Virus record (IMG/VR): IMGVR_UViG_3300027804_001810
Span: 10,771 to 74,770 of that record
DNA: 64,000 nt
Origin: a virus
Lineage: Duplodnaviria > Caudoviricetes
Direction: 5' to 3' (one strand)
Shown piece by piece: positions 1-27,541 of this stretch. Each line of letters begins with the position of its first letter. Within the stretch, counting starts at the first letter, position 1. The notes under the pieces are model-generated. The model was given only the letters and a program-made list of their open reading frames with translations. It was not told where the DNA came from and searched no databases. Both the position numbers and the translations under genes were made by a program.

Positions 1-337
1 AAATTACAATCGCATCAAAATCTTCTTTTGGAAGATCATAACTCATCGGTTTTACTAAATTTTCAGTATCAACTCTTAAGATTTGATGGTTATACTTTTC
101 ATCAATATATCTGGTCTTAATAATTTTTTCATCATTTGTAAGAATGTAAACTTCCATACCGAAAGATTTAAGATTTTCTCTTACATTCCAAGCCATTCCA
201 TGTCGCACTTCTTTCCTCTGATATTTGAGAATGGGGACAGGTGCTTCTGGATTTAACCTTTCACAAATTCCATAGACATACTCGTCTATGCAACTATCTC
301 CGATCAATAATACTTTGTATTGTTTTTGTTGTTGCAT
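1..337 (-). CDS. HldE/RfaE-type sugar (heptose-7-phosphate) kinase domain, PfkB family; truncated by window edge; not in ORF track
   Basis: Manual translation from ATG at 337: MQQQKQYKVLLIGDSCIDEYVYGICERLNPEAPVPILK...GMAWNVRENL...KTRYIDEKYNHQILRVD. This matches the RfaE domain I motifs (GD.xD.Y..G...R.sPEAPVP; KTR...qQ.lRvD). Confidence 0.85.
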   Translation of the reverse strand, partial: MQQQKQYKVLLIGDSCIDEYVYGICERLNPEAPVPILKYQRKEVRHGMAWNVRENLKSFGMEVYILTNDEKIIKTRYIDEKYNHQILRVDTENLVKPMSYDLPKEDFDAIVI

Positions 338-692
338 AATCGCCTATTCGATCAAAGAATATAAGTTTTGATGCATAGTAAGATCCTATTACAGATTTAT
401 CTTTCCAATCAGATCCTACAACCATTATATCAGGTTTGAATGATTTTATCATCTGCTCCAGTTCATAATCACTTGAAAAAATATCCACAGTATTAACTGC
501 CTTTAAATTTTCTAGAAAAAATTTTCTTTCTTCTTGATTATGTATTGGTCTTGTGGGACCTTTCTTTTCTCTAACTCTATCATCACTATCAATCCCAACC
601 AACAAAAAGTCTCCTAAACTTTTTGCGTAGTTTAGGAGTTCTAAATGACCTCGGTGAAGAATATCAAATGTTCCGTTTACAAAAATATTCAT
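294..692 (-). CDS. HldE/RfaE domain II-like nucleotidyltransferase (cytidylyltransferase family)
   Basis: NGTFDILHRGH (HxGH), GIDSD, KGPTRPI, VGSDW and TTKTI motifs; adjacent to the kinase domain. Confidence 0.9.
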   Translation of the reverse strand: MNIFVNGTFDILHRGHLELLNYAKSLGDFLLVGIDSDDRVREKKGPTRPIHNQEERKFFLENLKAVNTVDIFSSDYELEQMIKSFKPDIMVVGSDWKDKSVIGSYYASKLIFFDRIGDYATTKTIQSIIDRR

Positions 693-1509
693 AACAATCC
701 TTAATTCCCTTTTCTATACCTTCATACTTTATTGGTAGATTATTTGGAGCACCACAATAAGAAAACTCATTATAAGTTCCATGTTTAGAAATAACAACTT
801 TATGATCACTTACATTATTAATCATATCAGCAATTTCACTTAAATAATATTTTTTATCATAAACACAGTTTATATCTCGACAATCAAACTCTTCAACTAA
901 ATTTAAAAAATGACTGATAATCTTGTAAAGATCGTTGGCATAGATAAAATCTATCTTTCTATCTTTTGTTATCTCTATAGATTTTTTATTAATGTAGTTA
1001 TTGATATTGGTATTGAAGAATCTTGTTGGTTCTTCATATGGACCAAAGCATCCAAAAATGCGAAGATTGATAGCATACGGATGTTGCAAAACTCTTTTTG
1101 CAATACAGTATTTTGAAAACCCATATGGATCTACAGGAATAATTTGACCAAAATGTTTTGGCGATGGTTCTTCTACAGGTGCTGGACGACCATATGAAGC
1201 GCCACTGTCTAAATTAATAAACATATTAGATTTACTAATATGTTTAAAAATATTTTCAAAAATTTGCATGTTGGTATAGAAAACTTCTGGTCCGTCTTCT
1301 ATATCCCTACGACCCCCTTTAATTGCCCCATGAATAATAGCGTGATATGTCTGACCTTCAAATAAAGAATCAACTTCACTTTGAACATCCAATCTAACTT
1401 CTCTTGAAGATGGTTTAACAACTTCCCATCCTTCCGATTCTAAAAGAGGGATAATTTGCTTACCAAGAAATCCATTGGCACCTGTAAAAAGAATTTTATT
1501 CTTTGTCAT
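664..1509 (-). CDS. NAD-dependent epimerase/dehydratase/4-ketoreductase (extended SDR)
   Basis: TGANGFLG Rossmann motif, YGFSK (YxxxK) and LRIFGCFGP; likely start MTKNK at 1509. Confidence 0.85.
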   Translation of the reverse strand: MTKNKILFTGANGFLGKQIIPLLESEGWEVVKPSSREVRLDVQSEVDSLFEGQTYHAIIHGAIKGGRRDIEDGPEVFYTNMQIFENIFKHISKSNMFINLDSGASYGRPAPVEEPSPKHFGQIIPVDPYGFSKYCIAKRVLQHPYAINLRIFGCFGPYEEPTRFFNTNINNYINKKSIEITKDRKIDFIYANDLYKIISHFLNLVEEFDCRDINCVYDKKYYLSEIADMINNVSDHKVVISKHGTYNEFSYCGAPNNLPIKYEGIEKGIKDCYEYFCKRNI

Positions 1510-2362
1510 ACTTCCAACTAGAATCACTCAGTAGTTTTTCAAGCTCATCATCTTTAATTTCGTAAAAGTTTTCAGAAGAGGGGAATTGAAGTTCACGAAC
1601 TTCATTCACATAGTCCGTAAGGGCAGATTGAATAAGTTGCCCTGCTTCACAATAACGCTTTACAAATTTAGATTTAAATTCCCAGAACAATCCAATCAAG
1701 TCGTGCATAATTACAAGTTGTCCATCAACCTTATCGCCAGCACCAATTCCATAAACAGGAATCTCCAAAGACTCTGCAATCATTGCAGCAGACTCCCTAG
1801 GCATTGCTTCAAGTAAAAGGAAAGAGCATCCAGCGTCTTGAAGACGAAGTGCCTGGTCAAGAATCACTTTTGCCTGATCTGCAGTTTTTCCTTGAACCCT
1901 ATACCCTCCCAATTTAGCACGAGTATGTGGTGTTAATCCAAGATGACTCATGACCATGATTCCAGCATCGCAGATTGCTTTAATACGTTCAACCATGCAC
2001 CCTTCAACCTTTACAGCATCCATTCCTGCCTGAATAAATGCCCCAGCATTTGTCACCGCATCTTCATTAGAAATTTGATATGACATATATGGCAAATCCC
2101 CCACAGTAAATGCGCGATTTACTCCACGAGATACTGCTCTAGCAGAACGAAGCATATCATCCATGGTCACTGGAATGGTTGTCTTGTATCCCAAGGTAGT
2201 CATACCAAGAGAATCTCCAACCAAAACCCAATCAACTCCAGCATTATCTGCCATAAGAGCTTGAGGATAATCGTAAGCAGTGACTCCAACGGTCTTTATT
2301 TTATTTTGTTTTTGTTTCTGCAACTTTAAAATAGTTACTTTATCTTTATTATCTGCAGGCAT
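1496..2362 (-). CDS. panB: Ketopantoate hydroxymethyltransferase (PanB) family
   Basis: TAYDYP, LVGDSLGM, GDLPYMSY, AVKVEG, HLGLTP, GYRVQGK, LLEAMP and DGQLVIMHDLIG motifs. Confidence 0.92.
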   Translation of the reverse strand: MPADNKDKVTILKLQKQKQNKIKTVGVTAYDYPQALMADNAGVDWVLVGDSLGMTTLGYKTTIPVTMDDMLRSARAVSRGVNRAFTVGDLPYMSYQISNEDAVTNAGAFIQAGMDAVKVEGCMVERIKAICDAGIMVMSHLGLTPHTRAKLGGYRVQGKTADQAKVILDQALRLQDAGCSFLLLEAMPRESAAMIAESLEIPVYGIGAGDKVDGQLVIMHDLIGLFWEFKSKFVKRYCEAGQLIQSALTDYVNEVRELQFPSSENFYEIKDDELEKLLSDSSWKYDKE

Positions 2363-2363
2363 A

Positions 2364-4049
2364 TCAGTCTAGGGGGTTAACTATCATATTACCATAGAAT
2401 TCGTCTCTAGGCAAGAATGGGTACATATCTTCAAGTGGTTTTGCTGTTATTGATCCATCATCGTTTTTCTTACCCATCAAAGTAGGAATAACTTCTTGCC
2501 ATTTTTCACACATAACTTCACATATCACAGGACCATTATAATTCAACGTGTATGTAATTGCGTCTTCCAAATTATTAGAATCTGCATAAACATATTCAAT
2601 GCCAAAACTTTCTACTACCTTACAAATATTTGGGATGGAAACTCCACTTTCGGCATCGGTTCCTATTTCTCTACCTTCAAAAAACTTTTTCTGCGTTGTT
2701 CGGATTGAAAGATATCCTTCATTATTCCAAACAAATAGTTTAACTGGTAGATTATAATGAACTATAGTTTGAAGTTCTTGCAAATTCATCATGAAAGAAC
2801 CATCACCAGTCACACCAATTACATCACTCTTTTTAGCAAAAGCAGCGCCAATGCAAGCAGGAATAGTAAATCCCATTTCAGCTTGAGCACTGGAAGTAAT
2901 ATATCTTTGATTGTCTACAATATCTGTAGCTTGTGAGCAAACATAATATGCAGATCCAGCGTCGGAAATAACAACATCATCAAATCTCTTTAACTTATTA
3001 AGTACATGAGTGAAGTAATAAAGATCTACTTTTTCTGATGGATTTTCAGTTGGACAAATAGGCCACTTTCCTCTCCAACGTAAACAGGTTTCATTCCATT
3101 TAGTTCTCTGTCTAGAAAAAATGTTTTTCTGCAAAAAGTCTTTTGCATCAGAATGAATAAATCTATCAATTTTAACAGTATCTTTTGAATGTTCATCCTT
3201 ATCAACATCCACCACTATTACTTTTGCTTCTCTAGCAAAAGTGGAATAATCATATCCAGTAACTGGCACAGGTAATCTACAACCAATTACAAGAAGAAGA
3301 TCACAGTTTTGCATGGCAAAATTGCCAGCACGAGTTCCTTTAATTCCAACTCTACCTACAAAATTTGAATCATTAGAATGAATTAAATCCACACCATTAT
3401 AAGATGTCACAACTGGAATATTTGTTTTACTTATGAATGCTCTAAATGCATTTTTAGCATTAGAACAGTTAATACCATTTCCAGCTAAAATTAATGGTCT
3501 TTCTGAATTTTCAATTTCATGTTCCAAATCAAAACAAGATGCCCCTTGGACATCCATGGGAACATCAATCCACACTGGACCAGGACGACAAGTTGTGGCA
3601 TGATAAATTGCCTCCCTCATAATATCACCAATGTCTTCTGGATCGTGAACAACTGCAGAATACTTAGTAATTGGTTTCACAATGTCAATAATATTAGCTT
3701 CCTGAACACCAAGATTTCTAACTCCAGCAGGAGCCATATGAGAACGATTTACATTACCAGAAACAAATATTACTGGAACACTATCTTGCCAAGCATCAAG
3801 AAGACCTGTAATTGCATTTGTTCCACCACAACCTGTTGTTAAGCAAACAGCACTTATACTATTTGTATACTTTGAATACGCAACCGCACCCATTGCACAA
3901 GACTGCTCATGATGATTGCATATTGGTTTAATTTTTCCGTGAGCAGCAATAGCATCATTAAGATACATTGCCCCACCGCCAGTCACAAGAAAAATGTGTT
4001 CACATCCTTCTTTATAAATCTGATCGATAATATAATCTGCTACTCTCAT
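2364..4049 (-). CDS. ThDP-dependent acetolactate synthase-like enzyme (YerE-like in this context)
   Basis: HHEQSCAMGA, TTGCGGTNAITG, RPGPVWIDVPMDVQ and ThDP motif GDGSFMMN...NNEGY. Confidence 0.9.
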   Translation of the reverse strand: MRVADYIIDQIYKEGCEHIFLVTGGGAMYLNDAIAAHGKIKPICNHHEQSCAMGAVAYSKYTNSISAVCLTTGCGGTNAITGLLDAWQDSVPVIFVSGNVNRSHMAPAGVRNLGVQEANIIDIVKPITKYSAVVHDPEDIGDIMREAIYHATTCRPGPVWIDVPMDVQGASCFDLEHEIENSERPLILAGNGINCSNAKNAFRAFISKTNIPVVTSYNGVDLIHSNDSNFVGRVGIKGTRAGNFAMQNCDLLLVIGCRLPVPVTGYDYSTFAREAKVIVVDVDKDEHSKDTVKIDRFIHSDAKDFLQKNIFSRQRTKWNETCLRWRGKWPICPTENPSEKVDLYYFTHVLNKLKRFDDVVISDAGSAYYVCSQATDIVDNQRYITSSAQAEMGFTIPACIGAAFAKKSDVIGVTGDGSFMMNLQELQTIVHYNLPVKLFVWNNEGYLSIRTTQKKFFEGREIGTDAESGVSIPNICKVVESFGIEYVYADSNNLEDAITYTLNYNGPVICEVMCEKWQEVIPTLMGKKNDDGSITAKPLEDMYPFLPRDEFYGNMIVNPLD

Positions 4050-5338
4050 TTTTCAAAAGTAGAAGTAATTTTCCCAATGTAATCAATCATTTCTTCAGTG
4101 ATAGTAGGAGAACAACCAACAAAGAATACAAGATCAAGAACCTTACATGCATTAGGATAGTTCTTATAATAATCTAAATGGCTATATCCAGGGTGCATTA
4201 AAATATTTCCAGCAAAATAATTTCTTGTTTGAATTTTATTTGATTCCAAATGATGAGTAAGTTTATTTTTTGTTTGCTTACTATCGCAAATAATGGGAAC
4301 TCCAAACCAACTCGTCTCCGCTTTAGGCAGTTCGTTAACACTCCTAACTCCAGGAATCTTTTCAAAATGTTCTTGGATAAGAACTTTATTCTTTCTACGC
4401 AATTGATGAATTTCATCCTGCTTATCAAGTTGAACAGATCCTATCGCTCCCTGAAAATCCATGGGCTTAAGATTATAACCCATTTGCGTGTAGACATACT
4501 TATGATCGATAATGCCATCATAACGATCAATCCAGTTATCAAATCTTTTACCACAAACTCCGCAAGAAAGGAGGTTCTGAGACCCTACACAATAACAGTC
4601 TCTACCCCACCAAGCAAGACTACGGGCAATATTAATCAACTCACAGTCATCAGTAGAAATCATTCCACCTTCTCCAGTACAAATATGATGTGCTGGATAG
4701 AATGAACATGATGCTGCAATCGCATGATCAGTCAGATACTTACCATCCCACTTACTGCCAAGACTATCACAGTTATCAGCAATTAAATGGATCTTATAAC
4801 GATCGCAAATATCAAGAATAATATCAATGTCATAAGGATTTCCCAGAACTGGTGAAGAAAATATTCCTCTGGTTTTAGTAGAGATCTTATCTTCAATCTC
4901 ACTAATGTCCCAATTCAAATCTGTAAAATCAATATCAACAAAAACTGGTTTCAATCCATTTTGAACAATGGGAGCAATAGTAGTTGGAAATCCCACACAA
5001 GATACAATAATTTCATCACCATCTTCCCACCCAAATCTTTTTTTAAGGGCAGCAATCATGACAAGATTGGCAGAACTACCAGAGTTCACCATTAAAGAAT
5101 TTTGCTTATTAAATCGTTTGGAGAATTTTTTCTCAAACTTACTAACTTCCTCACCAGAAGCTAACCATTTCCCCTGAAGAAAGGATTTAAAAATAGATTC
5201 CAGTTCCCTATTATCCCAATAAGGTCCCGAATAATAAACTGAAGACTCTCCAGGAATAAATTTACCACTATTAGCAAGATATGGAGGAGATACATCTTGT
5301 AAAAGTTTTTCAATTACACTATCCATTAGTAACCTCAT
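4046..5338 (-). CDS. rfbH: CDP-4-keto-6-deoxyglucose 3-dehydrase E1 (RfbH/DdhC), PMP- and 2Fe-2S-dependent
   Basis: VNSGSSANL; SFYPAHHICTGEGG (His in place of the aminotransferase Lys); Cys cluster WGRDCYC...CGVCGKRF; YDHKY-like GYNLK region. Confidence 0.9.
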   Translation of the reverse strand: MRLLMDSVIEKLLQDVSPPYLANSGKFIPGESSVYYSGPYWDNRELESIFKSFLQGKWLASGEEVSKFEKKFSKRFNKQNSLMVNSGSSANLVMIAALKKRFGWEDGDEIIVSCVGFPTTIAPIVQNGLKPVFVDIDFTDLNWDISEIEDKISTKTRGIFSSPVLGNPYDIDIILDICDRYKIHLIADNCDSLGSKWDGKYLTDHAIAASCSFYPAHHICTGEGGMISTDDCELINIARSLAWWGRDCYCVGSQNLLSCGVCGKRFDNWIDRYDGIIDHKYVYTQMGYNLKPMDFQGAIGSVQLDKQDEIHQLRRKNKVLIQEHFEKIPGVRSVNELPKAETSWFGVPIICDSKQTKNKLTHHLESNKIQTRNYFAGNILMHPGYSHLDYYKNYPNACKVLDLVFFVGCSPTITEEMIDYIGKITSTFEK

Positions 5339-6179
5339 TCAGATAATCATTAACTTCAGTTGATACGACAGTTGACAACCAATTTCTAAACCCACCACAA
5401 CGTTTGTTTATTTCTGCTGCCAGTCCTCCACCAGCTTGGTGTAATACTTTTAGGCACATAGGTTCGCCATTAACTGGATCATCAAGGTACAGTCTACCAT
5501 CTTTTAAGTAAATTTGCGACCAACTTTCCCAATGATTATTGGGATCATTGCCCCAACAGCTGGAAAGACCATATGAAACTCCAGATCCCATACAATCTAT
5601 AACTTTAGAATTATATTTTTTCCAGTGAAATAATTGATTTAGAGTATCATTTTCATCACCAACACCATAAGCAGAAGGATCAACCTCTGCTCTAATACGA
5701 ATTGCTTCTTGATTTAGATTGTGCCAATCATACCAAAATTCCTTTCGATTAACTCCAACGAGACCAGCATTAATAAACTTTTGTACTGGTATTGGATTAC
5801 CATTTCCAAAAGGTTCCAAGTGGGGAATAGTAATTCCATTATGAGATCCTGCTTTATTAAAGCTGTTATTATTTCTTACACCTAGAACATCTGCTTCACT
5901 ATTAAAAAGTTCATCCATTGGACCAACTACAACAGCATCGGCGTCCAAATGAATTACCATGTCATAATCTTCAACAAAAGGAAGACAAGTTGGAGCCATC
6001 ATCCAAATAGGTTTCATCCATGGATATTGAGCATAAACCTCATTAGTCATTTTAGTATCAAAAATGACATGCTCAACATCTGGATGAAAATATTTTATAG
6101 AATTTGTTAATTTCTCTACGCCAAGAATCTCAGCATAATCATCAGTACACCAAGTAGAGATAAGAATTTTCTTAGACAT
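5319..6179 (-). CDS. GT-A fold glycosyltransferase-like protein (GT8-like)
   Basis: HLDAD (DxD), FINAGLV and ENDTLN motifs typical of GT8/GT77-like enzymes. Confidence 0.65.
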   Translation of the reverse strand: MSKKILISTWCTDDYAEILGVEKLTNSIKYFHPDVEHVIFDTKMTNEVYAQYPWMKPIWMMAPTCLPFVEDYDMVIHLDADAVVVGPMDELFNSEADVLGVRNNNSFNKAGSHNGITIPHLEPFGNGNPIPVQKFINAGLVGVNRKEFWYDWHNLNQEAIRIRAEVDPSAYGVGDENDTLNQLFHWKKYNSKVIDCMGSGVSYGLSSCWGNDPNNHWESWSQIYLKDGRLYLDDPVNGEPMCLKVLHQAGGGLAAEINKRCGGFRNWLSTVVSTEVNDYLNEVTNG

Positions 6180-6817
6180 TATTCAACAATTCCAACAAGA
6201 AGTTTTTCTGCCTCGTCTGAGATATCTTTATTAACTGGGAAAAGGATAATAAATCCCTGCTTATTATATGATTTAATCACATAATGTGTTTCTTCAAATA
6301 GTTCATCAATGAACTCAATCCCATCAGCACCATATTTTAATCTGTCTCTCCAATTGCCATCTTCAAAAGGACCGTCTTCATAAATTCTGAGATCGTCAAT
6401 AACAAAAACATCATTAGAAACATCTCTGCTATTTACAATGATTTCCAATTCACTCTGCAATGGAAGCCTCTTGCTCAGATCAGGTTCATCACCATAAGAT
6501 GCCATTCCAAAATCTGCACCAGGAAAATGAGCATCCATCCAAAACAAAGTATTTCCAGATAATTCTGGAAGAATTTGTGGGAGAACATCAGAAGACTGCC
6601 CCAAATGCCAATTCACACCTTTCAGATAAGAAAGAGAAACTTTATTTTTCTTATAAATTTCTTCGATAATTTCGATCGTATGAATATTTACTTCAGAATT
6701 AATTCCATAAACAGACCTAACGACCTCTGCTGCGCCAGTGCCAGTCTCAACAAAATTTTCAATGTTATAAAACTCTAGCAAATTCTTAACATGAACTGCT
6801 TCATTTAATTGACCCAT
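6179..6817 (-). CDS. Putative class I SAM-dependent methyltransferase
   Basis: FVETGTG motif I, HTIEI, and LFWMDAH. Confidence 0.55.
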   Translation of the reverse strand: MGQLNEAVHVKNLLEFYNIENFVETGTGAAEVVRSVYGINSEVNIHTIEIIEEIYKKNKVSLSYLKGVNWHLGQSSDVLPQILPELSGNTLFWMDAHFPGADFGMASYGDEPDLSKRLPLQSELEIIVNSRDVSNDVFVIDDLRIYEDGPFEDGNWRDRLKYGADGIEFIDELFEETHYVIKSYNKQGFIILFPVNKDISDEAEKLLVGIVE

Positions 6818-7308
6818 TAGATTTTTTCTCCAACTACAATAAAGGAATGATTTAAATCTCTTTGACTACTAAAGATATTAGTATACCCGTTTTCTTTCAT
6901 AAAATCAACTACCATTTCAGGTAAGAACGCATGTAAGTGTTTTCTGTTATTCCAAGGTCTCCAATATTTTTGATCATAATGTGGTAGGTATAAAAACAAG
7001 GTGCCACCACTACGAATTTTTTCAGTCCAATACAAAAGAGTTCCAGCCCAATCAGGAACATGCTCTAAACAATGACTGGAAAAAATATAGTCAACTTGAT
7101 TATCAGGAAGATTATTAGCATCCCAAGGATCATCAAAATCAAGATCTATAGGGATTGAACCTGGATAAGACCAATCAACTTTCATACACCCAATATCATA
7201 TCCCTTACCCATACAAAAGTATTGTGCAAATGGAATTGCAAACTGGGATGCATTGCCTATGGTTTGAAAGTGAGGATATTTTTCACCTCTATATTCTACT
7301 ACTTGCAT
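6817..7308 (-). CDS. Class I SAM-dependent methyltransferase (Methyltransf_11-like)
   Basis: GYDIGC, VDYIFSSHCLEHV and GGTLFLYLP. Confidence 0.8.
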   Translation of the reverse strand: MQVVEYRGEKYPHFQTIGNASQFAIPFAQYFCMGKGYDIGCMKVDWSYPGSIPIDLDFDDPWDANNLPDNQVDYIFSSHCLEHVPDWAGTLLYWTEKIRSGGTLFLYLPHYDQKYWRPWNNRKHLHAFLPEMVVDFMKENGYTNIFSSQRDLNHSFIVVGEKI

Positions 7309-8006
7309 AACATTACGTGAGGTTTATTAAACAGATAATCAATTTGTTCTTTATTTTTTTCATCATGAGCATAAATGACATACTCATCATAAGAAGTATC
7401 AATAACTTCAATAATATAATTAATAGATGTATTGATTGTATGAATTTTTTTTGCCTTTTCTAGAACTTTAATCCAATCGAACAATGTAAATCCATCGATA
7501 ATTTTCAATTCAACTACAGGAAGATCAAACTGTTCTGGACTAAACAATTTACTATCACGGATATCAGTATTATAAAGATTGTTTATGAAAACGAATTCAG
7601 AGTCATCCTTTAGATTAAGTACATTATAGTACAAATCATTTTCTTTATCAAGGTCTCGTTCAAATTTAAAATACTCACGCCAATCTTCATATTCCATATC
7701 GAGCATAGAATATTTGGATCTCATAGTTTTACCATCATTATGAGTTAGATCAGCAGTCGCAATACTAATGAACGCTACATTTTCTTCAATAACATATCCA
7801 CCAAATTGATCGTAGACATCTTTACCAAGAAAATCATCATCTAAACTAGGAAAGTCAATATCTTTAATGTAATTACCAATCCAAGTAATGTCTGGTCTGA
7901 GTGGCCAAATAACTTGATATCCTTTAGATAGCATTACTCTGGCAATTTTCTGACAAAAAAATACATCGCCAATACCAGCGGGTTGTTTAATTATACAAGG
8001 TTTCAT
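7299..8006 (-). CDS. Hypothetical glycan-cluster protein, GT-B-like N-terminus
   Basis: QPAGIGDVFF N-terminal motif resembles GT9/GT11-type starts; cluster context. Confidence 0.45.
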   Translation of the reverse strand: MKPCIIKQPAGIGDVFFCQKIARVMLSKGYQVIWPLRPDITWIGNYIKDIDFPSLDDDFLGKDVYDQFGGYVIEENVAFISIATADLTHNDGKTMRSKYSMLDMEYEDWREYFKFERDLDKENDLYYNVLNLKDDSEFVFINNLYNTDIRDSKLFSPEQFDLPVVELKIIDGFTLFDWIKVLEKAKKIHTINTSINYIIEVIDTSYDEYVIYAHDEKNKEQIDYLFNKPHVMLCK

Positions 8007-8377
8007 TACTGATATTGAGGAAGTATTTTTTGTTCGTTTATTTGACTGTTGGTATACTTATTAATTTTTGATTTCACATGAAACCTTTCATCATTGTTAT
8101 AGTAAACGTCTCTAGCAAGTTGAATAAAAGTCTCATCAAATTGCTTGTTCTTTTCACATAAACGAATACTATCTTCAGTATCCCAAATCTTTTGATTAAC
8201 TGCTTGAAGTTCGTCAATCATTTCTTGAGGAACATCTAGACTTTCAACAATTGGAACAAGATACTCAAGTTCTTTTAGAATTTGTTGGGTCTTTGCCTCA
8301 CTATCAGAATTTTCTAATTTAATTTTAAGAATGGTAAGTTTATCAACAATCTCACCATTAGCTACTTCGATTTTCAT
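8006..8377 (-). CDS. DUF6165-like protein
   Basis: IEVANGEIVDKLTILKIK...LWDxEDxIR...ARxVY..ND.R...K..IN pattern. Confidence 0.7.
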   Translation of the reverse strand: MKIEVANGEIVDKLTILKIKLENSDSEAKTQQILKELEYLVPIVESLDVPQEMIDELQAVNQKIWDTEDSIRLCEKNKQFDETFIQLARDVYYNNDERFHVKSKINKYTNSQINEQKILPQYQ

Positions 8378-8392
8378 TTGATTAAATGTAAA

Positions 8393-9175
8393 TTACTTCC
8401 ATTTGTTCCAGGGATATACATCCCAATTGTCCTTAAGATAACCTTCACCATAAAGAACATTACCAGCATTCCCATCCTGAAATGGAGTATGTTGTCTATC
8501 TCTACGAACAAAAAGAGAATCACCCTGCCCCTCATTTTTATATTGGGGGGACATTTCAGTAAGATCAAATCCCTTCTCATCCAACCATTCAACAATTTGC
8601 TGATGTGCAGCACCAGCACCATGACGATCATCAAATGTTGTTTCAAGATCGACCACATTAATATGATCAAGATACTTTTCAAATCCCATCAACACATCAA
8701 GTTCAGCACCTTCAACATCAATGTTCAAAAAATCATATTCATTCATGTCAATGTTATTCTCCTCAATTATTGTTGAGAGAGTTTTTGTTTTAACTTTAAT
8801 TGAATGAACTTTACCCCACTCTGGTTTGCCTGGATAAAAACTAGATCCTAACCCATGAGGACATATCCAGAAGTCTTTTTCAACACCATCTTCCTTATAG
8901 GTAAATTCATTGAAAATTTTAAACCCCCATTTATCAGCAACAGGTTTTGCCATGTGCTGATAAATATCTGGATTTGCTTCTATACCAATAACCTTGTTGC
9001 CAAATAATTTAGTATAACAACCATACTCAATAAAGTCATACAACCCTACATGTATAACCCCTTTTGGTTGAATATTAATTCTTTCAAAAATACCAACCCA
9101 TTCCCGCATTTCGGGATCCCAAACTGCGCTTCCAGTTTCTTTATTCCATGAAGCATATGGACCAAGCATACTCAT
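8393..9175 (-). CDS. FkbM-family methyltransferase
   Basis: GVIHVG, GIEANP, and DFLNIDVEGAELDVLMG. Confidence 0.85.
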   Translation of the reverse strand: MSMLGPYASWNKETGSAVWDPEMREWVGIFERINIQPKGVIHVGLYDFIEYGCYTKLFGNKVIGIEANPDIYQHMAKPVADKWGFKIFNEFTYKEDGVEKDFWICPHGLGSSFYPGKPEWGKVHSIKVKTKTLSTIIEENNIDMNEYDFLNIDVEGAELDVLMGFEKYLDHINVVDLETTFDDRHGAGAAHQQIVEWLDEKGFDLTEMSPQYKNEGQGDSLFVRRDRQHTPFQDGNAGNVLYGEGYLKDNWDVYPWNKWK

Positions 9176-9186
9176 AACAATACTCC

Positions 9187-11010
9187 TTAAGGCACAATTA
9201 GATCTAGTTGTCTCACATCAAATTCTGATGTCTTAATATCTATATGATTTTTAGTGAAGGGAGTTTCGTGCAGATGTGCGTTCTGATATCCAGCTCTGGT
9301 TGGATCTGGCATACTAGGATCAGATCCATCAGTACCAGCAAACACCATAAGTTTTAAACAACCAAGATATTTAAACAGATCAAAAATACCACATGCTTGA
9401 CCAATGATAACCATGTTCTTATGTCTAACAATATAGTCCATTAGATCTTGCAATTCATATTTGTTTAGAGGTTCAGTTCCATCAAAAGTTTTTTGATTTT
9501 TAAACACACCAGTTTTATTAGTCATATTAACAAAAACTCTATAACCCTTCTCTTTCATCTTATCAACAACACTTTGCCAGAAAGTATCTTCCATTTGCCA
9601 ACTATCACCTCTTTCTGGAAATAAAATACAGGTCTTTTCCTCAATATCTTTTTTTGCCTTTAGGTCATAGTCATATGCCTTTTGAAGGACTCCAGTATTT
9701 TGAATGTTGCTACAAAAATCCCAATAATTAAATGGCATGTGCGCCACTTTAAGTTTGCCATAACGATGAGCTTCTGCCATACAACGTGAATCTTGAGGGA
9801 AGAATCCATTACAAGACATCATGATTTCATTTTGATCAAATGGATATCCTGTATTATTCCATATATCTCCATCAGGATACACAACAACTTCCAGACACTT
9901 GTGAGGATATGGGGTATAATTATCTAGAACAAATTTAATTCCATTAAAAACTCTCTTTTGGCAAAGAATCTTATAAGGAACAGGTGAACGAGATTCTAAA
10001 AACATAGTAGCTGCAGTAGCATCTCCCATGCCCCAAGCCATTAGATACCAATTTTCTTTTTCGAAAATTGATCGATCAATGTTCGCAACTTCTTCTTTTG
10101 TTATCTCTCTAACATGTACTGACATTGGTTTTAAAATCTCCTCTAATTTTAGAAATGTTTCTGTTGTTGTTTGCGTATGATAATTAGTTGCATTATATAA
10201 TGTGCGATTATAAAAACACTCTAAATCAGAAACATGAACATTATCTTTTGTTTGGCAAATAAGAATTTTATCCTCATCCAAAACATTTCTGTTTTGCATT
10301 GATATTGCCTGAAAAGCGCCAGAATTCTTAGCTACAATTATATCACAAAAAAGACTAAAATATGCGTTATGAATAATGTCAGACTCATGATTTCCAAAAA
10401 TATTTGGAGTATGAATTACATTATTGTTTAATGGATTAGTACCTTCATTGTTTGTATAGTAAAAATCATATTCTGGAAGTAAACCAGCAATCCTATCAAT
10501 TTTGGGTATCCAGTCTTCATTATCAGTTTGCCCAGATCTTCCTTTAATATTCACAAAAAGAACTTTTTTACGTGAATTATTTTTAAGGATATCAATTGAA
10601 TTTAGAGAATGTTTATCTAAAATTGATTCAAAATCAAAATTCAATCCAAGATCGTCAGGAATTTTTATATCAAAATTATTTTTTTCAAAAACATACTTCC
10701 AGAAATATTTTTGATTGGATACCATATCATATGGATATAGAATCTTAAGAGCTTCTGCACCATCAACATATAAATGATGATAAGATCGATCCCCAAACCA
10801 AGTAGGGATATTAATATCCCCACATAAAGTATTGGTTGGATTTAAATTTGGTACTGTCTTTAAAAATATTTCTGGAATAATAGTTCCATCTCCACCACGA
10901 ACATATTGATAATATTCATTGTCTGGATATTTTTCTATTAATAGATTAAGAAATGGAATCGTTAAAATAAAATCACCAAGATGACCTTCAGTATAAAAAC
11001 ATACTTTCAT
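9187..11010 (-). CDS. Two-domain glycosyltransferase-like hypothetical protein (607 aa)
   Basis: Two GT9-like starts, GHLGDFILTIPFL and WGMGDATAATMFL; internal Met at the apparent junction. Confidence 0.5.
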   Translation of the reverse strand: MKVCFYTEGHLGDFILTIPFLNLLIEKYPDNEYYQYVRGGDGTIIPEIFLKTVPNLNPTNTLCGDINIPTWFGDRSYHHLYVDGAEALKILYPYDMVSNQKYFWKYVFEKNNFDIKIPDDLGLNFDFESILDKHSLNSIDILKNNSRKKVLFVNIKGRSGQTDNEDWIPKIDRIAGLLPEYDFYYTNNEGTNPLNNNVIHTPNIFGNHESDIIHNAYFSLFCDIIVAKNSGAFQAISMQNRNVLDEDKILICQTKDNVHVSDLECFYNRTLYNATNYHTQTTTETFLKLEEILKPMSVHVREITKEEVANIDRSIFEKENWYLMAWGMGDATAATMFLESRSPVPYKILCQKRVFNGIKFVLDNYTPYPHKCLEVVVYPDGDIWNNTGYPFDQNEIMMSCNGFFPQDSRCMAEAHRYGKLKVAHMPFNYWDFCSNIQNTGVLQKAYDYDLKAKKDIEEKTCILFPERGDSWQMEDTFWQSVVDKMKEKGYRVFVNMTNKTGVFKNQKTFDGTEPLNKYELQDLMDYIVRHKNMVIIGQACGIFDLFKYLGCLKLMVFAGTDGSDPSMPDPTRAGYQNAHLHETPFTKNHIDIKTSEFDVRQLDLIVP

Positions 11011-11011
11011 A

Positions 11012-12100
11012 TCAAACAGGATGATACATTACAGTATCCTTATAGACTTGAGCGTTAATCCACTCATATGTTTTACGAATTCCTTCTTCAAGAGTTTGAG
11101 AATAATCCCAACCTAGTTTCTCACGAATAAGATCGTTGTTTGAATTACGACCACGAACTCCAAGAGGACCATTAATGTGCTTCTTAGTGATTTCTTTTCC
11201 TGCAACTTTAGCAGCAGTATCTGCAAGAGTATTAATCGTAACCATTTCTTCAGATCCAATATTAACAGGACCGATAAACTCAGATTCCATTAAACGTCGA
11301 GTCGCTTCAATACATTCATCAATGTAAAGGAATGAACGTGTTTGCTCACCATCACCCCAGATTTCAACTTCACCACCACCAGGAGGAAGTTCAGCAACCT
11401 TACGACACATAGCAGCAGGAGACTTTTCTCTGCCGCCAGTCCAAGTGCCTTCTGGACCAAAAATATTGTGGTAGCGAGCAATTCTTACAGGAATTTTGTG
11501 ATTTCGGTTGTAAGCGAGGAACATACGCTCAGAGAACAACTTCTCCCAACCATATTCAGAATCAGGTCCAGCAGGATAAGCATCGCTCTCTTTTAGTCCT
11601 GGATTGTTTACATCCATCTGTGCATACTCTGGATACATGCAAGCAGAAGAAGAATAGAAGATTTGAGTTTTATTTTGATCTTTAAGTTGATTCAGTTCTT
11701 TTTGACATTCAAGAACATTCAGATTAATTTGAATAGAATTGTGCATAATTTCTGCATCATTCTCACCACTGAAAACAAATCCAGCACCACCCATATCAGC
11801 AGCGAACTGATAAATCTCATCAAAAGGTTCTACAAATTTATCAATAACTGAATGATAATAATTTCCCTGATATCCAGCAAAACGAACACAGCGTTTAACA
11901 GTATCAAGATCTCTCAAATCACCTTGAATGAATTCATCTGCTGCCGTTTCAGAATATTCGGGGCGTTTAAGATCTACACCACGCACCCAATATCCTTCGC
12001 TTTTAAGTCTACGCACCATATGACTTCCGATAAAGCCACCAGCGCCACACACAAGAGCAGTTTTTTGTCTTGTTGTCATATTAGTTAACCTCTGTTGCAA
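11012..12100 (-). CDS. GDP-mannose 3,5-epimerase-like NAD-dependent epimerase
   Basis: GAGGFIG, FAADMGGAGF, YSSSACMYP, YGWEK, RYHNIFGPEG and WGDGEQTRSF. Confidence 0.85.
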   Translation of the reverse strand: MQQRLTNMTTRQKTALVCGAGGFIGSHMVRRLKSEGYWVRGVDLKRPEYSETAADEFIQGDLRDLDTVKRCVRFAGYQGNYYHSVIDKFVEPFDEIYQFAADMGGAGFVFSGENDAEIMHNSIQINLNVLECQKELNQLKDQNKTQIFYSSSACMYPEYAQMDVNNPGLKESDAYPAGPDSEYGWEKLFSERMFLAYNRNHKIPVRIARYHNIFGPEGTWTGGREKSPAAMCRKVAELPPGGGEVEIWGDGEQTRSFLYIDECIEATRRLMESEFIGPVNIGSEEMVTINTLADTAAKVAGKEITKKHINGPLGVRGRNSNNDLIREKLGWDYSQTLEEGIRKTYEWINAQVYKDTVMYHPV

Positions 12101-12115
12101 ATTAATCTATGTATA

Positions 12116-13273
12116 TTATACACCCATAAGGGTAATAAGTCTATTGATCTGGCGCTTCGTCACAAACTGACTGTTGCCAACATATAGTCCATTGTTATGA
12201 AGAATAGAAACATTTGAAACTTCTTTATTAGTGCAAAGTTTATACTTCTTAAACGCAGGATGTAAAAGTAGATTCCCACTAATAATAGGACGATACTCGA
12301 TGCCATTCGACTTTAATTTTTCTTTAAGTTCTGCACATGCAGATTGACTTTTAGAAATAATTGGGAAAGAAAAGCTACTATTACCTTTTTGATATTCAGG
12401 AATCAAATAGTCTTCGGATTTATAAATTTCATCCCACCAGTATTTAAAGTTTTCTCTACGAATACTAATATTTTTATCTAACTTTTTGATTTGAGATAAT
12501 CCAAGGACAGCGCAGACTTCATGATTCCTAAAATTATACCCATCCGTCATAAACAAAAATGCAGGATCAATATTAGGATTTTGTTTTCTGTAAACTTCAA
12601 AAACTTCTTTAGATGCTTCACGCGCCATACCATGACTACGCTTCATACGCATTAGTTCATAAAGTTCAGTATTGTTTGTGCAAACAACACCACCTTCAAT
12701 CGTTGTAATATGATGCCCAAAATAAAAGCTAAAGGTAGATCCAATAGAATCAACTCCACGCTTTTTCCCATTACGATCTTCAACTCCATGAGATTCGCAA
12801 ACATCTTCTAGGATAAGAGCATTTGGAAAAATCTCACGAACTTTTTCTACATTTGAAGAAAGACCAATCAAATGAGTGATAAAAACTGCCTTAATATCTG
12901 GATGTTGAGTTGCAATATATTTTAACTCATCAATATCAAAAGAAAAATTCTTTAAGTTAATATCACAAAAAATTGGTTTCAATCCAGCCTGAATGATAGG
13001 GGCAACATTAGTCATCCAAGTAGTGGCAGGAACTAATACCTTATCATTGTTCTTCAACTTATAAAGTTCCTTTACTGCAGAAACTAAAAGTGAATTTGCA
13101 GTAGATCCACTAGAAACGTAGAGAGAGTGTTTAACACCTAACCACTCCGACCATTCCTTCTCAAATTGACGAACCTTTGGTCCGTTAGTTAACCTGCTAC
13201 TTGTCAAAATAAAAGCAGCCATTTTAATACGATCACTTAAGGTAATCGTATCTTTCATTAAAGGCCAATACAT
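12116..13273 (-). CDS. colD: GDP-4-keto-6-deoxymannose 3-dehydratase (ColD-like, DegT family)
   Basis: VSSGSTAN and EDVCESHG; SFYFGHHITTIEGG with His at the catalytic position; no Fe-S Cys cluster; next to gmd. Confidence 0.75.
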   Translation of the reverse strand: MYWPLMKDTITLSDRIKMAAFILTSSRLTNGPKVRQFEKEWSEWLGVKHSLYVSSGSTANSLLVSAVKELYKLKNNDKVLVPATTWMTNVAPIIQAGLKPIFCDINLKNFSFDIDELKYIATQHPDIKAVFITHLIGLSSNVEKVREIFPNALILEDVCESHGVEDRNGKKRGVDSIGSTFSFYFGHHITTIEGGVVCTNNTELYELMRMKRSHGMAREASKEVFEVYRKQNPNIDPAFLFMTDGYNFRNHEVCAVLGLSQIKKLDKNISIRRENFKYWWDEIYKSEDYLIPEYQKGNSSFSFPIISKSQSACAELKEKLKSNGIEYRPIISGNLLLHPAFKKYKLCTNKEVSNVSILHNNGLYVGNSQFVTKRQINRLITLMGV

Positions 13274-13290
13274 TTAAGTTCCTCCAAACA

Positions 13291-14298
13291 TCAAAATTTT
13301 ATCTCATTGAGACACATATCTCTCACCAGTTCATCAAATGAAATCTTTGGCTCCCAACCAAGTTTATTTCTAGCTTTAGATGAATCACCAACAAGAGTAT
13401 CAACTTCAGAAGGTCTGAAGTACTTATCACTTACACGAATTACAACCTGATCGCTATTAGTATCGATACCAATCTCATCAAGACCTTCACCTTCCCACAC
13501 AATATTCATGCCAAAGTATGGGGCACATTTTTCAACAAATTCACGAACAGAATGTTGCTCTTCAGTTGCGATTACATAATCATCAGGTTCATCTTGCTGA
13601 AGCATTAACCACATTGCCTCAACAAAATCCTTTGCATGTCCCCAATCACGCTTTGCATTCAGATTTCCTAGAGGTAGATACTCAAGCAAACCAGATTTAA
13701 CTTTGGATAATCCAATTGAAATCTTACGTGTTACAAAAGTTTCTCCACGACGAGGAGATTCATGGTTGAAAAGAATTCCAGAACTAGCATGAATCCCCAT
13801 GGATTCCCTATAGTTTTTTGTAATCCAGTGCCCATAAAGTTTTGCCACACCATAAGGTGAGCGAGGATAAAATGGTGTCGTTTCTCTCTGAGGAATTTCC
13901 TGAACCATACCAAACATCTCAGAAGTAGACGCTTGATAGAAGCGCACATTCTTATCCATTCCAAGAATACAAAGACTATGGAGAATACGAACAGCACCTA
14001 GGGCATCTACTTCTGCAGTATAAGCAGGCATTTGAAAAGACACTTTTACATGACTTTGTGCTGCAAGATTATAAATCTCTGTTGGTTCAACTTCCTGAAC
14101 TACATGAAGAATATTTGTAGAATCTGTTAGATCAGCATGATGAAGAATCACATCTTGAGACAAATGATCAATTCTAGTATTGTTAATTGTTGAACTCCTT
14201 CTTATAGTCCCATGGACTTCATATCCCTTTTGAAGGAGGAGTTCAGCAAGATAAGATCCGTCTTGCCCAGTTATTCCAGTTATTAAAGCTCTTTTCAT
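13291..14298 (-). CDS. gmd: GDP-mannose 4,6-dehydratase
   Basis: [39 protein letters not shown] and [19 protein letters not shown]. Confidence 0.97.
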
Positions 14299-14344
14299 AT
14301 AGAATGATTACTATAGGTATTAATTGTACCACATTTATACTTGT

Positions 14345-15211
14345 TTAGTCAATAGCAATTGATTTCAAATACTTTCCATATCCACTTTTTGCAAAAGTAT
14401 CAGCGAGTTCTAAAAGTTGATCCTTTGTAATCCACTTTTTTCTATATGCAATTTCTTCTGGGCATGATATTTTTTTACCTTGAATTTTTTCAACTGTTGA
14501 AATAAAATTCGATGCCATCAGCAGAGAATCAAAAGTACCAGCATCAATCCATGCCATTCCTCTACAAAGTGGAATTACATTAAGATCATTGTTATTAAGA
14601 TATATTTTATTCAAATCAGTAATTTCTAATTCTCCTCTTGGAGACTCAACGATTTCTTTAGCATAATTAACAACTCTATTATCATAGAAATAAATTCCAA
14701 CTACCGCCCTGTTTGATTTTGGATCTTTTGGTTTTTCTTCTATAGAAATAACTTTATTATCCCTATCCGATTCTATAACACCAAATCTATGAGGATCTTG
14801 AACTTCGTATGAAAGAATTGTTGCTCCACTATTTTCTTGGCACAATTTTAAAACTTTAGTTAATTCATTGCCATACAAAATATTATCACCAAGAATCAAA
14901 CAAACATTATCATTTCCAATAAATTCTTCCGCAATTAAGAATGCTTCTGATATACCTTTTGGCTCAAACTGAACATCATAGACAATATGAATTCCCCATT
15001 GAGATCCATCACCTAAAAGTTCCATAAACTGATTGATATATTCTGGGGTAGAGATGATTAAGATCTCTTTGATTCCCGCAAGCATTAAAGTACTAATAGG
15101 ATAGTAAATAAGAGGTTTATCATATACATTTAAAAGTTGTTTAGATACAACTAATGAAGATGGATATAATCTTGTTCCTTGACCACCAGCCAATATAATT
15201 CCTTTGTACAT
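14345..15211 (-). CDS. rmlA: Glucose-1-phosphate thymidylyltransferase
   Basis: KGIILAGGQGTRLYP, SKQLL.VYDKP, SPRGELEITD and WIDAGT. Confidence 0.95.
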   Translation of the reverse strand: MYKGIILAGGQGTRLYPSSLVVSKQLLNVYDKPLIYYPISTLMLAGIKEILIISTPEYINQFMELLGDGSQWGIHIVYDVQFEPKGISEAFLIAEEFIGNDNVCLILGDNILYGNELTKVLKLCQENSGATILSYEVQDPHRFGVIESDRDNKVISIEEKPKDPKSNRAVVGIYFYDNRVVNYAKEIVESPRGELEITDLNKIYLNNNDLNVIPLCRGMAWIDAGTFDSLLMASNFISTVEKIQGKKISCPEEIAYRKKWITKDQLLELADTFAKSGYGKYLKSIAID

Positions 15212-16947: not shown

Positions 16948-17029
16948 AATACCCTCCTTTTGTTCCGAAATAAAGAGTTGTTAATATGAAAGGAATTGAA
17001 ACAAATAAAAGTGCTTTTGCTAATAACAT
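16907..17029 (-). CDS. ndhP: NDH-1L small subunit NdhP homolog (40 aa), not in ORF track
   Basis: MLLAKALLFVSIPFILTTLYFGTKGGYYDTEKYKGNGTAH: a TM helix plus the C-terminal FGT.nG.YDT..Y.GNG.AH signature of cyanobacterial NdhP. The ATG overlaps the PTOX stop (TGATG). Confidence 0.88.
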   Translation of the reverse strand: MLLAKALLFVSIPFILTTLYFGTKGGYYDTEKYKGNGTAH

Positions 17030-17529
17030 CAGACCATCTCCATTGCTCTTGAGAGTTCAATATAGTGATTAATTTCATCCACTGCGATTTCACCTATTCT
17101 GGCGTCTTCTGGATGATCCCAGAAGTAGTTTAGATAGGTCTCAGTGGCGTGATACTCAATACCTGCGTTCAGGTGATAAGCAGAGACAGGAGCAATAAAG
17201 TAATAACCCACCAGAATCCAATAATAGATGAGAACCAAGTGATAAGCAATAAAGCGGTCATACCAACGGTCGGCACCACCACGCCTTTCCATTTCGATGA
17301 GATGTTCGGTTTCATTGAGTGTTTGTGCAAAGTGTTCTTTCATTAAGTAGTAGTGTGATAGATCTCTGAGTCCTAGTGATTCTTTGAGATGTAGCACACT
17401 TACAAAAGCAAAGTATGGTGCTCTGGCAATTGTTTCCAGAACCCAGAATCTTTGTATGGGTAAATCACGATACAGAAAGTCAATGATTGATATCGTGACT
17501 AATAGAATTGTACCGTTGATTTTTTTCAT
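17029..17529 (-). CDS. ptox: Plastoquinol terminal oxidase (AOX family)
   Basis: Di-iron ligands in ETIARAPY, NETEHL, EYHATETY and DEINH. Confidence 0.92.
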   Translation of the reverse strand: MKKINGTILLVTISIIDFLYRDLPIQRFWVLETIARAPYFAFVSVLHLKESLGLRDLSHYYLMKEHFAQTLNETEHLIEMERRGGADRWYDRFIAYHLVLIYYWILVGYYFIAPVSAYHLNAGIEYHATETYLNYFWDHPEDARIGEIAVDEINHYIELSRAMEMV

Positions 17530-18886: not shown

Positions 18887-19324
18887 TTATTTTTCAGTAA
18901 ATGAACGAAGCATCCAAACGAACTTACCGTGTGCTTCATTTAAATCATCAAGAAGGTTAACTGTTCCTCTTGACTTCTGTTCGTCTGCTTCAACAGCAGC
19001 ATCAGAAAGCATTGTAATTATTTTTTGATGTCCATCAATCAAGTCACGAATCATTTCCATTTCGGAAATATTAGACTTTGCTTCACCAATGCCAGAAACT
19101 TCTACTACTCGGGATAAAGAACTAACTGGTTTAATTTCCAGGAATCTCATATGCTCAGCAATACGATCAACTTCTTCTTGAAGGGCAAGATACTGCTCAC
19201 CAAATAAATCGTGAATCTGCTTAAAGTCAGGTCCAACAATATGCCAGTGATAAACCCAAGTCTTTTGAAAGAGAACAAAAAGACTTGCCTGAGTATCAGA
19301 AAGTAATTTATATAACTTTTCCAT
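18887..19324 (-). CDS. dps: Dps / DNA-binding ferritin-like protein
   Basis: HWHIVGPDFKQIHDLFGEQY and DRIAEHMR ferroxidase motifs; C-terminal KFVWML. Confidence 0.92.
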   Translation of the reverse strand: MEKLYKLLSDTQASLFVLFQKTWVYHWHIVGPDFKQIHDLFGEQYLALQEEVDRIAEHMRFLEIKPVSSLSRVVEVSGIGEAKSNISEMEMIRDLIDGHQKIITMLSDAAVEADEQKSRGTVNLLDDLNEAHGKFVWMLRSFTEK

Positions 19325-27329: not shown

Positions 27330-27541
27330 CAGAAAGGTAATTTAAACTTCTCTGTATTTATCTTGGGGATAGGAAGTTTCTCAAATGCCTTGTTGACTTG
27401 TTTCTCTACAACAGCACCGACGAACTCTTCTGGGTTGTCCAGAATCTTTTGTGCTTTTTGATAAGTTACATAAGCACCATAACAAAGTGCTCCACTCACC
27501 GCCAGACTTGCCGCTGATAAAATAAGTGCTAGGTTCTTCAT
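27329..27541 (-). CDS. Small membrane-anchored hypothetical protein
   Basis: N-terminal TM. Confidence 0.7.
   Translation of the reverse strand: MKNLALILSAASLAVSGALCYGAYVTYQKAQKILDNPEEFVGAVVEKQVNKAFEKLPIPKINTEKFKLPF

Follow-up and report, generated by a model that had tools for sequence, protein, structure and literature searches.

A PanB-family enzyme beside a YerE-like carboligase in a T4-like cyanophage: a candidate pathway to an acyl-branched 3,6-dideoxyhexose

The yersiniose A pathway of Yersinia pseudotuberculosis O:6 consists of DdhA-D, YerE and YerF. The erwiniose cluster of Pectobacterium atrosepticum contains ErwE, ErwF and ErwI/ErwJ, and ErwE uses aldolase-made 4-hydroxy-2-oxoacids, including 4-hydroxy-2-oxobutanoate, while it rejects pyruvate (Steitz et al. 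2022, PMC9306805). A "unifying scheme" was proposed in which aldolase-made donors are the general route to long acyl-branched sugars (PMC9306805). JanthE of Janthinobacterium sp. HH01 was characterised as a YerE-like thiamine diphosphate (ThDP) carboligase that couples 2-oxoacids to ketones and accepts many donors, 4-hydroxy-2-oxovalerate among them (PMC12188165). PanB of E. coli, a ketopantoate hydroxymethyltransferase (KPHMT), is a class II aldolase-like catalyst that converts many 2-oxoacids into 4-hydroxy-2-oxoacids (PMC7611260, PMC7610986). Here we describe a four-gene cassette in the virus record IMGVR_UViG_3300027804_001810, in which a PanB gene lies between genes for a YerE-like carboligase and a reductase. 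The window, as the whole stretch that was analysed is called below, has 64,000 nucleotides and covers bases 10771-74770 of this 74,770-base IMG/VR record, which is estimated to be 36% complete. With a probability of about 0.6, as judged from sequence, the four genes would be a phage version of a YerE/YerF-type pathway to an acyl-branched 3,6-dideoxyhexose, with PanB as the donor maker.

All four genes are located on the minus strand. They encode, in order, an E1-type pyridoxamine phosphate (PMP)/[2Fe-2S] nucleoside diphosphate (NDP)-4-keto-6-deoxyhexose 3-dehydratase like RfbH and DdhC (4046..5338, 430 amino acids), a YerE/JanthE-like ThDP carboligase (2364..4049, 561 amino acids), a PanB-family hydroxymethyltransferase/class II 2-oxoacid aldolase, the proposed donor maker (1496..2362, 288 amino acids), and an extended short-chain dehydrogenase/reductase (SDR), the presumed YerF equivalent and side-chain ketoreductase (664..1527, 287 amino acids). 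The dehydratase and ThDP genes overlap by 4 nt, the ThDP and PanB genes are separated by 1 nt, and the PanB and SDR genes overlap by 32 nt, or by 14 nt when the first ATG of the SDR (Met7) is taken as its start. The first-pass annotation of this DNA had seen four overlapping or abutting genes at 664-5338 and had drawn the analogy with YerE and YerF. The reading frames are all present there, in that order, and the identities hold: a dehydratase with E1 hallmarks, a ThDP enzyme close to JanthE and apart from acetohydroxyacid synthase (AHAS), a protein that scores as PanB, and an SDR. As in the yersiniose A pathway, an E1-type 3-dehydratase, a ThDP carboligase predicted to act on the C4 ketone and a side-chain reductase are clustered with sugar-activation and glycosyltransferase genes. 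Unlike that pathway, which belongs to an enterobacterial O-antigen locus, the cassette is found in a cyanophage, a PanB gene is placed between carboligase and reductase, and the contig carries neither E3 (DdhD) nor CDP-glucose genes, its RmlA pointing instead to a dTDP-linked sugar.

The dehydratase (Pfam DegT, 252 bits) has its best PDB match in Yersinia pseudotuberculosis E1 (3bcx, 255 bits; ColD, 179 bits). His217, within FYPAHH, stands at the position of the lysine that binds pyridoxal phosphate and aligns with His220 of E1, a site marked by the H220K mutant entry 3bb8. Furthermore, Cys190, Cys248, Cys250 and Cys262 align with Cys193, Cys251, Cys253 and Cys261 of E1, which we take to be the ligands of the [2Fe-2S] cluster. 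Because of this best match, the histidine at the lysine position and the four aligned cysteines, the dehydratase is assigned to the E1 type and not to the ColD type.

The ThDP enzyme contains the three ThDP-enzyme domains (Pfam N, M and C), and its alignment retains the catalytic glutamate (HHEQ) and the GDGSF...NN cofactor motif; JanthE differs in having CDG where the window protein has GDG. In comparison with the PDB it is closest to JanthE (8rph, 362 bits), the closest solved relative, and thus nearer to JanthE than to the YerE homologue PpYerE (224 bits), while plant AHAS scored 217 bits and glyoxylate carboligase 130. It falls below the cut-offs of all AHAS models, of which the best gave 345 bits (cut-off 738) and TIGR00118 gave 330 (cut-off 538). 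At the position of the acceptor-site tryptophan in the LGMVxQW motif of AHAS, which we take to be an AHAS hallmark, a threonine was found in the window protein and in all YerE-like rows; the tryptophan is kept in the two highest-scoring of three true AHAS that were fetched, and the third has leucine. In a tree of 132 sequences, rooted on these three AHAS from cellular genomes, the window protein sits in a viral clade whose sister is a protein of an uncultured bacterium (locus L086, 50% identity). The viral clade and L086 are together nested in cellular YerE-like genes, among them the Janthinobacterium and Symbiopectobacterium ones, with AHAS apart at 100 support. Among the 80 closest cellular relatives of the window ThDP gene, which were retrieved with their neighborhoods, an E1-type dehydratase lies within 10 kb in 38, and a dehydratase of the His type is near the ThDP gene in 39/80; the Janthinobacterium locus has an RfbH-like gene nearby and no PanB. 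A further ThDP gene (P0096), 65% identical to that of the window, was found on a 228 kb NCBI contig. Judged by its sequence, the window ThDP enzyme is YerE-like and not an acetolactate synthase. Close relatives are nevertheless publicly annotated as acetolactate synthase (large subunit), and such annotation would support another view, in which the genes for PanB and the ThDP enzyme serve ordinary auxiliary metabolism, boosting the pantothenate/coenzyme A and branched-chain amino acids of the host, and merely lie inside a sugar cluster. For the ThDP enzyme this is largely refuted by the failed AHAS models, the missing tryptophan and the YerE-like grouping.

PanB itself seems at first to favor such auxiliary metabolism. 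It scores above the PanB equivalog cut-off (TIGR00222, 282 vs 207 bits) and resembles housekeeping PanB/KPHMT (E. coli, 1m3u) in fold, length class, and metal-, base- and carboxylate-binding residues, with all E. coli catalytic and metal-binding residues conserved (D45, S46, D84, K112, E114, H136 and E181). In fact, one marine virome study takes viral "pantoate transferase" as a vitamin B5 gene and reads viral PanB as a pantothenate gene (PMC8940887). Unlike the housekeeping enzymes, however, the viral copies (38 non-redundant sequences, at least 64% identical to one another) form one monophyletic, virus-only clade that is about 40-50% identical to cellular PanBs; outside this clade, the closest representative in a set of 1.8 billion proteins reaches 62% identity, and those after it fall to about 50%. 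Residues that are otherwise near-invariant have been replaced in this clade: Q142H (38/38), G135S, F87Y and P227S, these four each occurring in 36-38 of the 38 viral sequences, while 149 other PanBs have Q142 in 145, G135 in 122, P227 in 131 and F87 in 125. Two further changes in the clade, I200Y and L213V, border the I202/I212/V214 pocket, which governs the substrate scope of E. coli KPHMT (PMC7611260, PMC7610986). The viral PanB clade thus looks retuned, and the pocket changes suggest that the 2-oxoacid used might not be 2-oxoisovalerate. The first-pass annotation had named nesting of both enzymes among housekeeping ones as part of the case against its proposal, a test that applies only by half, since the viral protein does score as a bona fide PanB.

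The genes around viral PanB differ likewise from a vitamin pathway: no panC, panE or ilv genes accompany it, and viral panB always shares its operon with a YerE-like gene. Close relatives of the window PanB are encoded by at least 106 stretches in IMG/VR, and 80 loci, fetched by PanB similarity, were kept for counts. The gene association first noticed in the window recurs in this set: PanB adjoins a YerE-like ThDP gene in 80/80 loci, with a median gap of 1-3 nt, and a His-type sugar 3-dehydratase lies within 8 kb in 64/80. Adjacency is only apparently lost in two cases: L021, where the contig ends, and L013, where the ThDP gene is split over two reading frames (L013:1272-2940), reflecting a frameshift or an assembly error. 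Of the three layouts, ThDP-PanB-SDR accounts for 48 loci, PanB-ThDP for 22 and ThDP-PanB for 8. The grouping of the cassette genes is not chance. Such adjacency, with frames overlapping or abutting, also speaks against auxiliary metabolism, as does the absence of panC and ilvC from five large viral records bearing the PanB-ThDP pair, including a 100% and a 90% complete one, although the host may supply them. Taken with the replaced PanB residues, this makes a role in host vitamin and amino-acid supply highly improbable.

A reverse scan of IMG/VR, started from the ThDP enzyme, revealed what occupies the PanB position elsewhere. Viral ThDP genes at least 48% identical to that of the window adjoin PanB in 42/47 cases, and four of the five that do not are cut off by the end of their contig. 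Of the viral ThDP genes that are more distant, 32/33 have no PanB beside them, yet RfbH-like and SDR genes are kept. In these PanB-less cassettes, either the SDR directly follows the ThDP gene, which is the plain YerE-YerF layout, or an HpcH/HpaI-type class II 2-oxoacid aldolase lies directly 3' of it. The latter was found in 8 viral and 8 cellular loci, and every aldolase tested scored over the Pfam cut-off with YfaU as the best PDB match. One PanB-less locus holds a NeuB-like enzyme in this slot. In L086, the closest cellular relative, altronate-dehydratase-like and mannitol-dehydrogenase-like genes precede the ThDP gene (L086:5831-8435) and could supply a 2-keto-3-deoxy-sugar-acid donor for a long branch. 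The slot enzymes (PanB, HpcH/HpaI aldolase, the NeuB-like enzyme and the L086 pair) are all 2-oxoacid makers. The HpaI-like protein was also considered as a diverged PanB and rejected, as no BLAST similarity exists between the two; the lack of detectable sequence similarity means that PanB and aldolase represent a replacement of function and not divergence. To account for the distribution of PanB linkage on the ThDP tree, four or more changes are required.

A second PanB lineage, 43-47% identical to the PanB of the window, was observed directly after a YerE-like ThDP gene in five viral loci (L213, L214, L217, L218 and L245). It keeps Q142, G135 and P227, and the proteins of L213, L214 and L217 have Tyr200 and Val213 (E. 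coli positions) in common with the main viral clade.

From family identities, active-site features and linkage, which are observed, we infer the chemical steps, the donor, the nucleotide carrier and the glycan target as follows. The pathway would start from an NDP-4-keto-6-deoxyhexose, most likely dTDP-linked, made through RmlA and a 4,6-dehydratase encoded off this contig. The E1-type dehydratase would strip the C3 oxygen with electrons from a host or phage ferredoxin system. PanB would hydroxymethylate a small 2-oxoacid (2-oxoisovalerate, 2-oxobutanoate or pyruvate) to a 4-hydroxy-2-oxoacid, which the YerE/JanthE-like enzyme would decarboxylate, coupling the resulting acyl-anion equivalent with the sugar at its C4 ketone. 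This ligation would generate a tertiary alcohol with a hydroxylated acyl branch, the SDR would then reduce the branch ketone, and a neighboring glycosyltransferase would transfer the sugar, with the host envelope or the virion as the target. Two roles had first been suggested for PanB, production of a hydroxylated 2-oxoacid donor or extension of the C4 branch, and the former is favored by the finding that HpcH/HpaI aldolases, published donor makers, hold the same slot in PanB-less cassettes.

The second role would mean that PanB acts after ligation: a pyruvate-derived acetyl branch would be added as by YerE, and PanB would then hydroxymethylate the sugar-bound methyl ketone, extending it by one carbon before the SDR acts. 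The gene order ThDP, PanB, SDR agrees with this sequence of steps, the alpha-hydroxy-ketone of a 4-C-acetyl sugar could perhaps chelate the metal like a 2-oxoacid, and the clade-specific pocket changes could mean a new, larger substrate. However, viral PanB is of the same size as PanBs that act on 2-oxoacids and has all of their carboxylate, metal and base residues, its slot is elsewhere held by pyruvate aldolases, and the order is PanB-ThDP in 22 loci. In erwiniose synthesis, moreover, the aldol step was shown to come before ligation, since ErwE rejects pyruvate (PMC9306805). Action of PanB after ligation is accordingly regarded as unlikely.

Donor production by PanB is best compared with erwiniose synthesis. 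As proposed for the window, the 4-hydroxy-2-oxoacid comes from an enzyme dedicated to C-C bond formation and serves as donor for a YerE-like enzyme, after which reduction follows; the 8 viral and 8 cellular loci in which an HpcH/HpaI aldolase lies behind the ThDP gene share this layout. Unlike in erwiniose, the donor maker would be PanB, a methylene-tetrahydrofolate or formaldehyde hydroxymethylase, in place of a pyruvate aldolase and an acetaldehyde dehydrogenase. That the cassette may operate in the manner of erwiniose synthesis, PanB taking the part of the aldolase, follows from the use of aldolase products by ErwE and the formation of 4-hydroxy-2-oxoacids by E. coli PanB. With PanB as donor maker, the branch would end in CH2OH, possibly with methyl groups depending on the 2-oxoacid. 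To our knowledge, no sugar with such a PanB-derived branch has been described. A broader proposal, which we put forward only tentatively, is that abundant T4-like cyanophages of the ocean make an undescribed sugar class during infection, a 3,6-dideoxyhexose with a PanB-derived hydroxymethyl branch at C4, possibly gem-dimethyl, PanB having been taken into glycan synthesis in two or more of its own lineages and paired with four or more lineages of YerE-like enzymes.

Several points weigh against donor production by PanB in a pathway to a branched sugar. The dehydratase scores below the equivalog cut-off of RfbH, its best NCBIfam model (379 vs 423 bits); an RfbH-like relative in locus L049 scores 458 bits, above it. 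On the 74.8 kb contig, about 36% of the genome, there is no glucose 4,6-dehydratase, no E3-type reductase (no NAD_binding_1 match), no 4Fe-4S motif, and no ferredoxin-like or LdpA-like partner; because the contig is a fragment, absence of E3 and the 4,6-dehydratase from the whole phage is not thereby established. Viral PanB, with its score of an ordinary equivalog, may simply form ketopantoate. As a donor, ketopantoate would be quaternary and hindered, and we know of no ThDP carboligase that takes such a compound. PanB is near none of the 80 closest cellular ThDP loci (0/80), so that no cellular model system exists for the PanB pairing. Finally, the trees were built with FastTree only, with an AHAS outgroup of three, and the loci come from related phages, so that locus counts are not independent events.

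The SDR belongs to the Epimerase family (Pfam, 89 bits) and has the motifs TGANGFLG and YGFSK, corresponding to the glycine-rich loop and YxxxK; a comparison with the PDB gave no close relative (best match E = 2e-4). SDR homologues lie beside the ThDP gene in 10 of the 80 cellular loci, and in PanB-less viral cassettes they can directly follow it. A weak heptose-epimerase match raised the candidate role of the SDR in a heptose module, which was rejected: the gene stays with ThDP-PanB in loci without heptose genes and follows the ThDP gene in PanB-less cassettes. The end of the SDR gene is overlapped by a cytidylyltransferase-like gene (692..294). A heptose-type activation module was recognized here, in which an RfaE-domain-II-like nucleotidyltransferase (window 294-692, minus strand) is joined by an RfaE-domain-I-like PfkB kinase, two small HAD phosphatases and a cupin (locus L002, 9705-11107, minus strand). 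The module follows the cassette in about 20 related loci and is absent from others (L003-L008).

With this cytidylyltransferase-like gene and the PfkB kinase directly behind the SDR, the ThDP enzyme, PanB and SDR might instead make a free hydroxy-acid or a pantoate/neopentyl-type polyol, to be attached to the glycan as a non-sugar substituent, perhaps after kinase/CDP activation. PanB and a reductase formally equal the ketopantoate-to-pantoate pair, and a PaaK-like ligase is encoded further along the cluster. The kinase and nucleotidyltransferase, however, match heptose RfaE domains I and II (144 and 110 bits) and are absent from L003-L008, which retain the four-gene cassette. Furthermore, the ThDP enzyme is in the ketone-accepting YerE-like clade, linked to E1 dehydratases in cells and viruses, and the PaaK-like ligase is not conserved in related loci, which leaves such a free small molecule decidedly unlikely. 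The ligase lies in a row with a nucleotide-sugar dehydrogenase and a HisC-like aminotransferase (L002, 4968-8574, minus strand), possibly for uronic acid amidation, and none of the three is conserved in the related loci examined.

For the precursor of the branched sugar, the cluster offers RmlA glucose-1-phosphate thymidylyltransferase (14345..15211, minus strand; TIGR01207, 429 bits, cut-off 361), a possible NDP-glucose source whose link to the cassette is presumed. It is the sole hexose-1-phosphate nucleotidyltransferase of the glycan cluster. In the related locus L049, a dTDP-glucose 4,6-dehydratase-like gene lies right behind the E1 gene. The nucleotide carrier is more likely dTDP than CDP, and because of RmlA and the L049 gene order the most economical reading is that the precursor is dTDP-linked and that other phage genes or the host provide the missing steps. 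A transferase for the product is suggested weakly by a GT8-like glycosyltransferase gene (5319..6179, minus strand; Pfam Glyco_transf_8 E = 0.0034, below the cut-off), which overlaps the dehydratase start by 20 nt and is kept directly upstream of the dehydratase in 24 related loci.

Electron supply to the dehydratase is suggested by a protein from the PanB-less viral cassettes. In four of them, the gene behind the aldolase encodes an LdpA-like protein with two [4Fe-4S] motifs (L233:6450-7607, L234:8589-9728, L237:8508-9665 and L241:7818-8975), which may be a candidate electron donor for the E1-type dehydratase instead of E3; the window has no LdpA-like homologue.

A second deoxysugar route lies at window 11012-14298 on the minus strand, where GDP-mannose 4,6-dehydratase Gmd (over its cut-off), a ColD-like His-type 3-dehydratase (13273..12116) and a GDP-fucose-synthase-like SDR occur in a row. 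These three form a predicted colitose-type 3,6-dideoxyhexose pathway separate from the branched-sugar cassette. Gmd and this second DegT protein were considered as a feed for the cassette and rejected, the second DegT being ColD-like and part of its own colitose-type pathway with the GDP-fucose-synthase-like SDR; the Gmd product may also be used by the E1-like enzyme.

In the literature, no paper was found in which PanB is connected with YerE-type enzymes or a viral pair of the two is described. New in this work are the tests of E1 and AHAS residues, the match with JanthE, the adjacency in 80/80 loci and the reverse scan, the PanB residues specific to the viral clade, the additional PanB lineage and the aldolase in the same slot. 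Ocean-virus genes counted as "pantothenate" and "acetolactate synthase" are probably glycan genes. If so, virome counts of viral "PanB" and "acetolactate synthase" would measure remodelling of cell-surface or virion glycans and not vitamin or amino-acid metabolism, and two recurrent auxiliary metabolic genes of marine viruses would be re-labelled as parts of a glycan pathway. In biochemical terms, the scheme for acyl-branched sugars would be extended to a new donor-making enzyme, which predicts a new sugar. For phage biology, a testable function would be given to part of the large "LPS-like" (lipopolysaccharide-like) clusters of big cyanomyophages, and natural PanB/carboligase pairs that build tertiary alcohols may interest the field of biocatalysis.

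The source phage is a T4-like cyanomyophage, its DNA polymerase sharing 90% identity with the enzyme of Synechococcus phage S-SRM01, 83% with that of S-SKS1 and 79% with that of P-SSM2. A near-identity DNA search of window 1-8000 against cultured phages gave no match, and protein searches of cultured phages found only host-contaminated records and the lone panB of Microcystis phage MaAM05, without a paired ThDP gene. The first ~26 kb of the contig (L002 and window 1-15211) form a single minus-strand glycan cluster, with a G+C content of 0.32-0.36 vs about 0.40 for the remaining contig. Within it, a 607-amino-acid open reading frame (window 9187-11010, minus strand) has no match in Pfam, NCBIfam or PHROG. 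The window also encodes ribonucleotide reductase, a DnaB-like helicase, CobS, a CobT-like protein, PTOX and PstS. Typical and less typical cyanophage auxiliary genes, all on the minus strand, include those for a PTOX-like alternative oxidase (17029-17529), a ferritin/Dps-like protein (18887-19324), a PstS-like phosphate-binding protein (19805-20782) and a class 3 lipase (27538-28134). Two more proteins are encoded on the minus strand: a 500-amino-acid protein with SLH and OprB-type porin domains, as in cyanobacterial outer-membrane porins, at a local G+C peak of 0.47 (20897-22399), and a phage-encoded 617-amino-acid protein with an autotransporter beta-domain (30152-32005).

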